A DNA stretch of 64,000 bases, taken from the IMG/VR virus record IMGVR_UViG_3300043444_000221, positions 1-64,000 of that record; one strand, given 5' to 3'. Origin of the DNA: a virus. The number at the start of each line of letters is the position of its first letter. Position 1 is the first letter of the stretch. The position numbers and the translations under genes were made by a program. This document shows positions 11,288-63,305 of the stretch, piece by piece. The notes beneath the pieces were generated by a model, which was not told the DNA's origin, made no database searches, and saw nothing but the letters and a program-made list of their open reading frames with translations.

Positions 11288-11588
11288 TACTAACTTTACA
11301 CCAAAAACTTCTTACCAGATATATTGCTCAGCACTTTGCCGTGACCAAGCAACAAAAGAAAAAATTGCACAGCGTTATGAAAAGACACGTAGGGAAAGAC
11401 GAAAAAACAAAGATCGTCGTTGCAAAATTTGTAATGCCATATTGTCAATTTATAACGATGAAAAGACATGTGAGTCATGTCTGATTGATCCTAAACAGAT
11501 TAATCGTGTACTTAGACAAATTAAGGGGATAGCTAGTGGTAAAACTGAACTCAATAGTGGGGAAGCCAGCCAAGATTCTAGCAATTGA
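11265..11588 (+). CDS. Zinc-finger protein
   Basis: CQWC, YCS..C, CKIC, CESC. Confidence 0.7.
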   Translation: MKHCQWCDTNFTPKTSYQIYCSALCRDQATKEKIAQRYEKTRRERRKNKDRRCKICNAILSIYNDEKTCESCLIDPKQINRVLRQIKGIASGKTELNSGEASQDSSN

Positions 11589-56987: not shown

Positions 56988-57245
56988 ATGTTAGAAGATG
57001 ATCCTATTATTACCCTAGAGCATACCTCTAAGTTCTTTAGAGTAATGCATGCTGCAGATAAGTGTGCAGGAGAATACTGTACTATCCATAATCGTTCTGA
57101 CCACAAGATGAGAAGTTATCCACAATCATGGCGTGGTGATAGGAGAATTATGGAAAGGATTTGTCCACATGGTGTTGGACATCCTGACCCTGATGAAATT
57201 AACCAAGACAAAACACACGGATGCGATGGATGTTGCTATGAATGA
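56988..57245 (+). CDS. Small Cys/His-rich phage protein
   Basis: C.IH..S.H, ERICPHGVGHPDPD, HGCDGCC; leaderless start. Confidence 0.75.
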   Translation: MLEDDPIITLEHTSKFFRVMHAADKCAGEYCTIHNRSDHKMRSYPQSWRGDRRIMERICPHGVGHPDPDEINQDKTHGCDGCCYE

Positions 57246-57931: not shown

Positions 57932-58156
57932 ATGGATATCAATAGCCTAGCTAACATGAGGTTGGAAGACTTCAGCAAAATCGGGGAACAGGAATACAAT
58001 AAGGGATTCAGAGCAGCCCTAGAGACAGTAATTAAAATCCTAGACAAGAAGCCTTGTGATGACTTTCAAGCTGACAACGTATGTGAGCATGGTGAGTGTG
58101 CCTATGCTGCAGAACTAGCTGAAGGGCTAATGGGTGTCAAGAATAACATTCAGTAA
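57932..58156 (+). CDS. Hypothetical protein
   Basis: AAGGA RBS. Confidence 0.65.
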   Translation: MDINSLANMRLEDFSKIGEQEYNKGFRAALETVIKILDKKPCDDFQADNVCEHGECAYAAELAEGLMGVKNNIQ

Positions 58157-58373
58157 GTCATGGATTGGCTCATGGCACATTAATCTATTTGATAAGATAG
58201 AGCTAATTATCGGAGTCAAAGATGGCTGGGGTATTGGATTCGATTTCAGTTGGTATGACAGAGCAATAACCTTTGACCTAATTAAGATTTATATTATTAT
58301 TGAGAAGCATTGGCCTCTATTTGATTCGTCTGATTTGGCGGTAGATGGATCTCAGTCCAAGGATGAAGAATAA
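58134..58373 (+). CDS. Hypothetical protein
   Basis: Overlapping ORF. Confidence 0.5.
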   Translation: MSRITFSKSWIGSWHINLFDKIELIIGVKDGWGIGFDFSWYDRAITFDLIKIYIIIEKHWPLFDSSDLAVDGSQSKDEE

Positions 58374-58395
58374 TCCATATAGTAGAATAAGCTCC

Positions 58396-58518
58396 ATTAA
58401 GAAGAAGCTTCCATGTTGAGGTGGCATCTGCATACATCAACATAGCCAAAGGTATCGTCTTCAACCTCTGCTATATCCCAGAACGCTGCTGGCTTGTCAC
58501 AGTACACACATTTATCCA
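58396..58518 (-). CDS. Small zinc-binding peptide (40 aa, not in ORF track)
   Basis: MDKCVYC...VCRCH; TATACT-N6-ATG. Confidence 0.55.
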
Positions 58519-58553
58519 TAGGTACAGTATAGCACATGACGTATAATGGTAAT

Positions 58554-58883
58554 ATGGACCAAACAATCTTGTATGTTTTATATCACAAGGAATTCCATGC
58601 TATCAAAATTGGGATAGCTGGAATAGGTAATACACGCTACAAGGCTCTCAAGACCAAGGGATGGAAGGTAGTAGCCTATTGGCCATTTTCCGAACGGGAT
58701 AAAGCAAGACACGTAGAATCCCTAGTACTAACTACACTAAGAATAAAACATGGTCATTATCTAACTAAAGAACAAATGCCCTATGGTGGATACACTGAGA
58801 CATTTGATGCTGATAAGGTAAGTAAGACTAGGTTGATCCGATTGGTCAACAAAGCCATAAAGCTAGCAAATAAGAGATCGTAA
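58554..58883 (+). CDS. GIY-YIG/T5orf172-like nuclease
   Basis: LYVL...IKIGI...R...E...GYTETF. Confidence 0.7.
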   Translation: MDQTILYVLYHKEFHAIKIGIAGIGNTRYKALKTKGWKVVAYWPFSERDKARHVESLVLTTLRIKHGHYLTKEQMPYGGYTETFDADKVSKTRLIRLVNKAIKLANKRS

Positions 58884-58894
58884 TACCCCCAAAT

Positions 58895-58970
58895 TTGTTA
58901 GGTTTAGATACCCCATTTTGTTAGGTTTTATCTTGAGTTGTTAGGTTTGATATCTCAATTTGTTAAGTTT
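58895..58970 (+). repeat. Four direct repeats TTGTTA(G/A)GTTT
   Basis: Starts at 58895, 58918, 58938, 58960. Confidence 0.85.
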
Positions 58971-59044
58971 ATACACATAGTTATCCACAGAGTTATACAC
59001 AATTTGATGTCTGATTTTGATAGTTATCCACAGGTTTATCCACA
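58969..59044 (+). promoter_or_regulatory. Five DnaA boxes (TTATNCACA)
   Basis: TTATACACA at 58969 and 58993; TTATCCACA at 58981, 59024 and 59036. Confidence 0.85.
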
Positions 59045-59283
59045 AGTAGATGTTACTGTCTTATTTCTCATATAGGGTTAGAGTGGATGGAAGTGGAGAG
59101 ATATGGAGAATGGTACGCCTTTAATCGTAGGCCATCGTAATCCTACCACAAATTAGCCCTTTTGTCAAATCGGACATATCCAAATTGTTACCAAATTGTG
59201 ACATTTATCATAGTTATCAAATTGTTACATTTGACAAATTGGGATATGTGTGCTATAAGGGCATAAAAAAATATGTCCAAATT

Positions 59284-59704
59284 TGGGAAAAATTTATTGT
59301 TATCGTAATGTTATTTTATTAAACATTATCCCAATTTGGACAAACTTCAAGAAACAGAATGTGTTTTATATACTGTAGTTATTGTATATAGTACTAGGGG
59401 ATTTGGGTATCTTTCGTAATACCCTGGCCCTTGGCCTGGTCCCCTTCGGGGAACGGTAGCACGGTAAATGAGAAGATCTTCTGAAGCCCAGTATACTTAG
59501 TAAAGGCATGCCATACAAATAGAGACATTTCATTGTGATCATCTCTCTGCTGTTGAGCAGCTTTAGGATATGACACTTGGAAGAAATGGTTTCTAGGACT
59601 CATAATATTATTATACACCAATTTGACAATTTGACAATGATCTGCTATGATCTGGGAAAATTTTTGATCCTTCGTAATCTGGGAATTTTTTAGGTCCTTC
59701 GTAA
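59284..59704. repeat. TGGGAA-N14-CGTAA motif (3 copies here, 2 more at 63131 and 63198)
   Basis: Same spacing at 59284, 59653 and 59680. Confidence 0.8.
59394..59603 (-). CDS. Hypothetical protein
   Basis: Leaderless TGTATAAT-N6-ATG start (MSPRNHF). Confidence 0.55.
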   Translation of the reverse strand: MSPRNHFFQVSYPKAAQQQRDDHNEMSLFVWHAFTKYTGLQKIFSFTVLPFPEGDQAKGQGITKDTQIP

Positions 59705-59736
59705 AGGAGCTATTTGGATCGACGGCGAATTTGGGT

Positions 59737-59760
59737 AAAAGAAAAGCCCCCGTAGGGGCT
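59737..59760 (-). terminator. Intrinsic terminator of the leftward operon
   Basis: AGCCCC-TACG-GGGGCT followed by TTTCTTTT on the minus strand. Confidence 0.8.
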
Positions 59761-59764
59761 AATC

Positions 59765-59887
59765 TCAAATAGGACAATCAGAATAGGGGAAGTATTCCTT
59801 TTCCTCGCAGGTGCAGAATCCAAACTCTTCTACCTGTGTAACGTGTGTCAAGTCTGCCAAATCAGACCAGTAATATACTTTATCCAT
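59765..59887 (-). CDS. Small acidic peptide (40 aa, not in ORF track)
   Basis: MDKVYYWSDLA...CTCE...DCPI; coupled to the upstream gene. Confidence 0.55.
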   Translation of the reverse strand: MDKVYYWSDLADLTHVTQVEEFGFCTCEEKEYFPYSDCPI

Positions 59888-60051
59888 TATGCTCCTACCT
59901 TCCATTCCATAGTATCAAATATGGTATCCATTGTCAAGTGCAAATTGCAGTCACATTCTCCACCATTCATATTCTCCATGAATTCAAAATGAGATAAATT
60001 GTCTTCATATATCTTGGTTACTAGTTCATCTACTGTATATGGTGTGCTCAT
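59887..60051 (-). CDS. Small hypothetical protein
   Basis: MSTPYTVDEL...CDC..H. Confidence 0.6.
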   Translation of the reverse strand: MSTPYTVDELVTKIYEDNLSHFEFMENMNGGECDCNLHLTMDTIFDTMEWKVGA

Positions 60052-60257
60052 GAATTTGCCATTACCCATTCTTCATCTACCTCGTCGTCATAGCAGCCAC
60101 AGCATTCAACACAGATAATCTCATTATCCTTGCTGCAGTTTGGACACAGATATTGGTCCATTGTCATCTCAGGGTTTTCACAGAACTCACAGATGGTTGC
60201 TGCAAGTTGTTCAATAGTATAATCTCTAATGTGGTCTGCCTTGAACATATGTTCCAT
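60048..60257 (-). CDS. Small Cys-rich acidic protein
   Basis: Three CxxC pairs. Confidence 0.6.
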   Translation of the reverse strand: MEHMFKADHIRDYTIEQLAATICEFCENPEMTMDQYLCPNCSKDNEIICVECCGCYDDEVDEEWVMANS

Positions 60258-60572
60258 ACTCCTTGTCTGCCGTCCATTTTGCAATCTCTTCTGAATCCAT
60301 ATCAGCGATATCAATCATTAGATTATTAGTGAACATCCAGTCCCTTACCCATTCGTATAGGTGTTCAGTTCCATACTCTAGGGTAAAGGCAGGGGTATCA
60401 GTATTGAGAGCATCCCATACGATATCCTGTGTACGAATATATAGTTCTTCATCTTGGTAGAACTGGTCAATGATGTCCCACACCCATAGCCACACAAGGC
60501 TAGGGAAATGGGTCTCATTTAGTTTAGTTAGTTTATCTAGAATCTCGTCTAGTTCTTGTCTTGGGGTTGTCA
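60226..60572 (-). CDS. Hypothetical acidic protein
   Basis: ORF in the leftward operon. Confidence 0.65.
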
Positions 60573-63069: not shown

Positions 63070-63305
63070 TTGGGGTTGCCTTTCTACTTTGATACCTCAA
63101 TTTTACACGCTGCCACTGACATTGTCAAATTGGGAAAAGAATCAGCGTGTCGTAATTACTTTTATATAGTTATTTATATAAGCTCAGATCCAGAATTTGG
63201 GAAATTTGTTACACAAACGTAATACAAAATACTTGACTAATAGTATAAAGTGTGGTCGACCACATTGCGATCAGTTTGTCAAGCTCAACACGATCCCTGG
63301 AGGGA

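Follow-up and report, generated by a model that had tools for sequence, protein, structure and literature searches.

A conserved DnaA-box module at the predicted boundary of a long terminal repeat in an uncultured lake phage

The window analysed here, 64,000 bp in length, comprises bases 1-64000 of an 80,320-bp IMG/VR record of an uncultured lake phage with a G+C content of about 40%. The list of open reading frames placed genes on the plus strand until 58883, on the minus strand from 59394 to approximately 72.3 kb, and on the plus strand again thereafter, leaving a gene-free block flanked by convergent genes, namely a plus-strand gene ending at 58883 and a minus-strand gene ending at 59394. 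The last gene of the long plus-strand block (58536..58883) encodes an endonuclease-like protein of 115 aa (phrog_681 match, E = 4e-10), homologues of which are 68-96% identical in three relatives, and the last gene of the minus-strand early block (59397..59603, minus strand), which is conserved in relatives, encodes 69 aa. Inspection of the sequence placed a leaderless-type promoter of the latter gene at 59610-59637 on the minus strand. Some gene starts, including those around 58530-58540 and 59603-59640, are located a few bases past a TATAAT-like hexamer and have no Shine-Dalgarno sequence; such short-leader genes look like sources of leaderless mRNAs, which are common among actinobacteria.

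A complete relative of 110.9 kb (G001) is collinear with this record, and its genes are ordered as a minus-strand block of about 13 kb of small genes followed by structural, replication and auxiliary genes. The sequence-only reading of this DNA had credited the phage with its own helicase, primase and DnaE, which was borne out: a DnaB-like helicase, primase, SSB and DnaE are all phage-encoded, as are a UvsX-like recombinase, a Cas4-type exonuclease and RuvC, and the DnaE protein is 54-55% identical to that of Stanwilliamsviridae phages of Streptomyces. Searches of the record and of G001 found no initiator or loader, and no homologue of DnaA domain IV, MraZ or the OmpR-type DNA-binding domain, while profile searches of the record and the relative assigned no recognisable family to most of the early genes. 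The block had no blastn match among GenBank phages, and Rfam identified no RNA family over 58000-60500.

At the left side of the block, a motif search identified four TTGTTARGTTT 11-mers on the plus strand (58895, 58918, 58938 and 58960; 58895..58970), which the sequence-only reading had noted and which are non-random, with 4 observed versus 0.10 expected and none of 100 shuffles reaching 4. The 11-mers are also present in G001 and are placed between boxes in G005; they are absent from the close relatives G002 and G003, and one mis-binned relative contig (L148) carries TGTGAGGTTT in their place. Because they are missing in close relatives, the 11-mers are considered to be variable and dispensable elements and not essential iterons.

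Next to the 11-mers, five co-oriented DnaA boxes had been claimed, and five boxes matching TTATNCACA are indeed located at 58969, 58981, 58993, 59024 and 59036, three of them being the perfect DnaA consensus site TTATCCACA. The first three (58969..59001, plus strand) follow one another at a 12-bp step as TTATACACA, TTATCCACA and TTATACACA, and the number and spacing of their equivalents vary among relatives. The other two (59024..59044, plus strand) are both perfect, are 3 bp apart and form the start of the core module described below. The perfect box TTATCCACA occurs 4 times in the 64-kb window versus 0.91 expected, and 9 times in the 80-kb record, mostly as pairs at a 12-bp step; these copies are located in the block, in spacers of the minus-strand block and at the divergent junction, with one exception at 57116, to the left of the block. 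In 20 related records, 83 perfect boxes were counted versus 3 for a reversed control word. The box stands as an exact 9-mer in an AG...GG context, and the E. coli R1 and R4 boxes have similar flanks. The boxes of Streptomyces oriC are TTGTCCACA (G-type), as opposed to the A-type TTATCCACA.

The core module, as defined by comparison of relatives, consists of two boxes 3 bp apart, a 5-nt gap, the 9-mer AT[C/G]TTACTG, a stretch of about 24 nt, GTGGWG repeated three times with a period of 10 bp, and ATATGnnnAAT[G/A]G. In this record the 9-mer is ATGTTACTG (59050..59058, plus strand), 5 nt past the proximal box, a gap that was the same in 71 of 80 loci. The 24-nt spacer that follows (59059..59082) is A+T-rich in most relatives; in this record its A+T content is about 65%, no richer than its surroundings. 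Three GTGGWG-like repeats (GTGGAT, GTGGAG and ATGGAG; 59083..59108, plus strand) correspond to the (G/A)TGGA repeats with a 10-bp period of the earlier reading, which are present as three RTGGA copies at 59083-59107 with 0 expected from shuffles. The published MraZ-binding pattern of B. subtilis, formed by the repeats of the mra promoter, is GTGGWG-N4 three times, and two of the three repeats in this record are each off from it by one base. Among 77 relatives, the perfect GTGGWG-N4 triple was found in 40, at 22-24 nt past the 9-mer, and a relaxed form in 25 more; these loci, 711 kb in total, contain 41 perfect triples, 40 of which are at this spot.

The core is kept nearly letter for letter even where the flanking protein is only 68% identical. 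It was present in one copy in each of the 11 related records examined, and wherever gene context was sufficient it was always located at the convergent junction in the same orientation; the box pair with the 9-mer was found in at least 120 IMG/VR contigs. A scan of GTDB for the module gave four hits (L148-L151), filed in Bacteroidia, Chitinophagaceae, Acidimicrobiaceae and Bacteroidetes MAGs. All four have the phage-type module architecture and three of the four have other sequence in common with this phage, and since the bins belong to unrelated phyla, these hits are probably mis-binned phage contigs; no bacterial oriC carrying the module was found in the scan.

To the right of the core module, consensus scoring identified a leftward promoter-like site, TTGACA-17-TAGGAT (59140..59168, minus strand), which points at the module. 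When scored against TTGACA-17-TATAAT, a leftward site within 330 nt was found in 64 of 71 relatives, versus 10 of 71 for the rightward control, and the exact TTGACA-17-TATAAT is present in most of the 40 relatives listed. Two MtrA-type sites, each an 8-bp direct repeat with a 3-bp linker, are located at 59184 and 59210 (59184..59228, minus strand), just upstream of the -35 of this promoter-like site, and comparison with the consensus identified a third at 59296..59314 (minus strand). All three have one mismatch to the C. glutamicum MtrA consensus, (A/G)TAACAAT-ttn-(A/G)TAACAAT (PMC3353115). The two GTTAY-CAAATT-GTKAC pairs of the sequence-only reading were recovered as GTTAYCAAATTGTKAC at 59187 and 59213, with 0 expected from shuffles. 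The MtrA likeness stood up against the published consensus, and just 8 of 71 relatives have MtrA-type sites in this position; weaker copies are enriched across the early block. The assignments to DnaA, MraZ and MtrA are sound as resemblances, and the syntenic comparison that had been proposed as a check confirmed the conservation of the core motifs but not of the 11-mers or of the MtrA-type sites.

The most A+T-rich part of the block contains an imperfect inverted repeat (59269..59347), and both G002 and G005 retain its arm cores, GTCCAAAT and ATTTGGAC. A motif search also identified four GGGRW-N12-16-CGTAA[T/A] motifs at 59284, 59397, 59653 and 59680 (59284..59705), all on the plus strand. 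The form GGGRW-N12-16-CGTAA[T/C] is biased to the plus strand by 17:1 in this record and by 14:1, 18:3 and 23:0 in three other genomes. The GGGRW motif is antisense to the early genes, with further copies at 63131-63224. Similar motifs, often the TCGTAA part alone, are present in Wakanda and in the terminal repeat of Jay2Jay, a BE1 phage, within its initial 700 bp. The possibility that GGGRW...CGTAAT is an ECF-type promoter was rejected because of an overly short spacing and an orientation opposed to that of the genes.

Cumulative GC skew, which had been proposed as another check, does peak at the block and has its minimum at the divergent junction, but it tracks gene direction throughout; it is uninformative on an origin and was rejected as origin evidence.

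Comparison with cultured phages offers another explanation for the change of strand. The Streptomyces phages of cluster BE1 have direct terminal repeats of about 11 kb (PMC5764925), and that of Jay2Jay is 11,438 bp with 100% identity between the copies. Its content is two annotated small plus-strand ORFs, which may not be real genes, since other BE1 records annotate nothing there, followed by a minus-strand block of small genes; two proteins of the minus-strand block described here are 53% and 46% identical to products of Jay2Jay repeat genes, with order and strand both preserved. An invariant pair, TTATCCACA-N13-TGTGGATAA, was found in the five BE1 phages aligned (Jay2Jay, Samisti12, LilMartin, NootNoot and Paradiddles), in the unique DNA adjoining the right repeat copy. 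The distance from this pair to the recorded genome end is 62 nt at the three left ends checked (Jay2Jay, Samisti12 and LilMartin), and in the same three phages the recorded end follows GTGTGTAAT[G/A], with G as the next base. Across 49 BE1 records, conservation starts either at the first box or some 20 nt ahead of it, and extends about 290 nt into the repeat. The two boxes of the BE1 module point towards one another over a gap of 13 bp, and the module lacks both triplets and spacer. Jay2Jay also has, at its inner repeat edge (11400-11470), a short, imperfectly palindromic stretch, GCATGTAT|CATACATC.

MAFFT aligned the module of the lake phages with that of BE1, including the 9-mer with GATGTTGCCTG, which is located between the two BE1 boxes, and the conserved ATATGGAGAATG|G (59101..59113, plus strand) with GTGTGTAAT[G/A]|G, which places the predicted outer edge of the repeat at 59112/59113. 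The box pair of the module, which ends at 59044, would accordingly lie about 68 nt before the edge predicted by homology with the cultured relatives. Logan contigs of the run that best represents the window (X1) have a depth of about 900-1150 up to 59015, with summed values of 1150-1201 at 59009-59015, and of about 1900-2000 from 59569, with summed values of 1993-2012 at 59569-59851, and two other runs have a similar rise across the block; this rise is suggestive of a repeat edge, though mixtures of strains give the same pattern. Four related contigs have end overlaps of 126-260 bp, which are typical of circular assemblies that hide repeats. By hand count, whole-contig loci ending within 700 bp of the module numbered 8 downstream versus 1 upstream (n=21); as these ends are not at one homologous position, they were rejected as evidence of a physical genome end.

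The gene order shared with BE1, the alignment of the edge motif and the rise in depth together place the edge near 59112/59113, and on the same three grounds we infer that this phage has a long direct terminal repeat carrying the early genes. The strand switch is most likely the junction of unique DNA and terminal repeat, hidden by circular assembly. The flanking genes do converge, as the sequence-only reading had stated, but the convergence is best explained by this junction, an explanation absent from that reading. The link to a boundary is not valid for every relative. Wakanda has three boxes at intervals of 3 bp (119,014-119,064), namely ATATCCACA, TTATCCACA and an inverted TGTGGATAA, located in a 1.4-kb non-coding gap, 5.5 kb before a terminal repeat of only 1,773 bp. 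The string across the first two Wakanda boxes is the same as in the lake phages, and the Streptomyces-type box TTGTCCACA is not enriched in Wakanda.

We read the block as a genome-end control module and not as a simple strand-switch origin or decoy. Our leading explanation of what it does, which we regard as possible rather than probable, is that of a cis-acting control region at the junction of unique DNA and long terminal repeat, where opening of the DNA by DnaA would start synthesis into the repeat. Host DnaA would bind the tandem boxes and open the DNA just downstream, on the side facing the repeat, an opening that transcription from the conserved leftward promoter-like site may assist. 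The phage helicase, primase and DnaE could then begin synthesis running into the repeat, and the outcome would be a start of replication, the regeneration of a second repeat copy before packaging, or both. The MraZ-type and MtrA-type sites may tie the opening step to the growth state of the host.

Several observations favour opening by DnaA. The boxes are real and enriched, and the phage sequences searched yielded neither an initiator or loader nor a DnaA domain IV. There is one module per genome, in a constant place and orientation, its spacings are fixed, and its box-plus-9-mer part is present in at least 120 contigs. The orientation of the boxes puts the spacer on the side of the unwinding element of oriC, the 9-mer can be read as three NTN triplets 5 nt past the box, as the rules of basal unwinding prescribe, and the leftward promoter-like site is conserved. 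Finally, the homologous pair of BE1 is 62 nt from an exact repeat edge, the order of genes in the minus-strand block is shared, and the depth rises across the block.

The likeness to a chromosomal origin is close in some parts only. The basal unwinding system of bacterial oriC consists of tandem DnaA boxes, DnaA-trios and A+T-rich DNA (PMC8287927). Two co-oriented boxes no more than 3 bp apart are present here (59024 and 59036, both perfect), as is the pair in all relatives examined, and ATG TTA CTG can be read as three NTN triplets after a short gap, inside the 16-bp limit from the box, with the required central base on the proper strand and in the right orientation. Unlike in oriC, the triplets are the bare minimum of three and are conserved as a fixed 9-mer word, and the BE1 homologue has facing boxes and no triplets. 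The BE1 layout thus counts against DnaA opening, as it shows that the oriC-like arrangement is not the conserved part, and so does the conservation of the 9-mer, which is far stricter than DnaA triplets would require. In this record the A+T content of the spacer is only about 65%, forks leaving the block would collide head-on with transcription on both sides, the rise in depth could reflect mixed strains, and BE1 phages keep TTATCCACA even though the oriC boxes of Streptomyces are TTGTCCACA. A plain origin would also not need the fixed distance to the genome end. An origin function of the block is nevertheless possible.

Iteron origins with DnaA boxes are known from P1 oriR, F oriS and pSC101, and like this locus they are non-coding blocks in which tandem DnaA boxes occur together with short direct repeats and A+T-rich DNA. 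They differ in that no Rep gene was found here, the 11-mers are missing in close relatives, and the phage is lytic with its own replisome. A Rep-dependent iteron origin was rejected, as the 11-mers are absent from G002 and G003 and no initiator was found. In T7, the promoter-origins phiOL and phiOR flank the concatemer junction, and the locus described here is similar in combining an initiation-type element and a promoter beside a terminal repeat, with a link to end processing; T7 differs in having its own RNA polymerase and a repeat of 160 bp, and we know of no described role of DnaA in its concatemer processing.

A T5-style entry stop or a packaging aid is nearly as likely as opening by DnaA. 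As an entry boundary, to which alone we give a rather low probability, DnaA, perhaps with MraZ, would be bound just beyond the repeat and halt entry or transcription until early proteins act; the early-gene repeat would enter first, drawn in by leftward transcription. T5-like phages have pairs of DnaA boxes in their terminal repeat, within an untranslated region, the injection-stop or iss region (Davison, bioRxiv 10.1101/866236). Both groups have lytic, siphovirus-type genomes of 110-130 kb with a terminal repeat of about 10 kb, in the present phage a predicted one, that carries early genes, and in both, consensus box pairs 3 bp apart occur in a repeat-rich non-coding stretch near the boundary of repeat and unique DNA, with putative roles in either case. 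The equal pair spacing directly beyond the predicted repeat argues for such a boundary, as does the fact that every repeat gene and the conserved promoter-like site read towards the module. In T5, however, the boxes are located inside the repeat, within large inverted repeats and eight per region, whereas the BE1 pair is 62 nt outside it and the same is predicted here, with one tandem pair just outside the repeat followed by the fixed 9-mer and GTGGWG, in phages of actinobacterial hosts. Even for T5, the involvement of DnaA in the stop is a hypothesis (bioRxiv 10.1101/866236), and for the lineage described here two-step entry is likewise hypothetical and the first-entering end could be either one. 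The T5 boxes are unlikely to be origins, since T5 origins are cited as being near the genome centre (bioRxiv 10.1101/866236).

Alternatively, the module may be part of a terminase recognition or cutting site, at which DnaA or a phage protein would bend or open DNA by the cut, as IHF does at lambda cos. This we consider improbable, although the 62 nt to the recorded end is fixed in the BE1 phages examined, the conserved block covers both sides of the edge, and the constraint on the 9-mer and edge motif is tighter than that expected of a regulator site. No known terminase uses DnaA, the Wakanda cluster is 5.5 kb away from its 1.8-kb repeat, and the position of the end in the present family is a prediction.

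Equally improbable is that DnaA, MtrA and MraZ regulate phage promoters here and are titrated by many phage copies, as a sensor of host state or a sponge. All three motif types match published consensus sites, and further box pairs with MtrA-type repeats are located between early genes, and the pair at record position 73206 extends over the -35 region of the TATAAT promoter of the divergent junction. The module itself, in contrast, is single-copy and fixed relative to the repeat edge, neither of which titration needs; no gene start adjoins it, MtrA-type sites at this position are confined to a small minority of relatives, and Jay2Jay has no boxes inside its repeat and yet keeps the boundary pair. 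A pure sponge role is therefore less likely for this module, and a sensor role fits the box pairs of the early spacers and the -35 pair of the divergent junction. Known MraZ repeats resemble this locus in having three GTGGWG separated by 4 nt, and known MtrA sites in consisting of an 8-bp direct repeat split by a 3-bp linker; the copies here differ in being at a phage genome-end boundary and not ahead of division or cell-wall genes, and the preferences of the host may differ.

It is very unlikely that phage proteins bind these sites and that the likeness to host factor sites is coincidental: most early genes have no recognisable family and BE1 phages keep an A-type box where host boxes are G-type, but three separate motifs match published host consensus sites in both sequence and spacing, the box is an exact 9-mer whose AG...GG flanks resemble those of E. 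coli R1 and R4, and searches of the record and of G001 for proteins related to DnaA, MraZ or OmpR-type regulators found none.

The module bears on the question of how phages with 10-kb repeats regenerate the second repeat copy and stage the entry of their DNA. Our literature search found no report of DnaA boxes at the repeat edge of an actinophage, and the only link between DnaA boxes and long terminal repeats that it found was the hypothetical idea for T5. A box pair fixed at 62 nt from an exactly known end in the cultured Streptomyces phages examined, inside a block that 49 BE1 records conserve, together with a large family of lake phages, makes the question testable in the laboratory. The module also corrects a likely mis-annotation, namely a genome end hidden by circular assembly, and offers a landmark from which the ends of related metagenomic phages can be predicted. 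A wider generalisation, which we regard as doubtful, is that lytic actinobacterial phages with long repeats use host DnaA, docked at the repeat edge, as a checkpoint, as T5 and perhaps T7-type phages would, in this family with docking of MraZ and MtrA as well, so that entry or regeneration of the repeat would be coupled to host replication and division. If this is true, the bacterial initiator would have a general, so far undescribed function at the genome ends of phages.

Box pairs were also observed elsewhere in the record. At the divergent junction (record 73206-73260), an inverted pair consisting of TTATCCACA, 3 bp and TGTGAATAA ends 16 nt before a perfect TATAAT, with an ATG 9 nt past the hexamer, and the first plus-strand gene there looks leaderless and controlled by DnaA. 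Five relatives have a comparable leaderless arrangement, with a DnaA box a short way upstream of a TATAAT-type hexamer. A second type of module was found in early-gene spacers at record positions 64426-64500 and 68260-68330, where a tandem pair of perfect boxes is followed by a G+C-rich GGnGYCGAC and adjoins GTAAC-N6-GTAAC (MtrA-type) direct repeats. This second type occurs family-wide, in both orientations and in several copies per genome.
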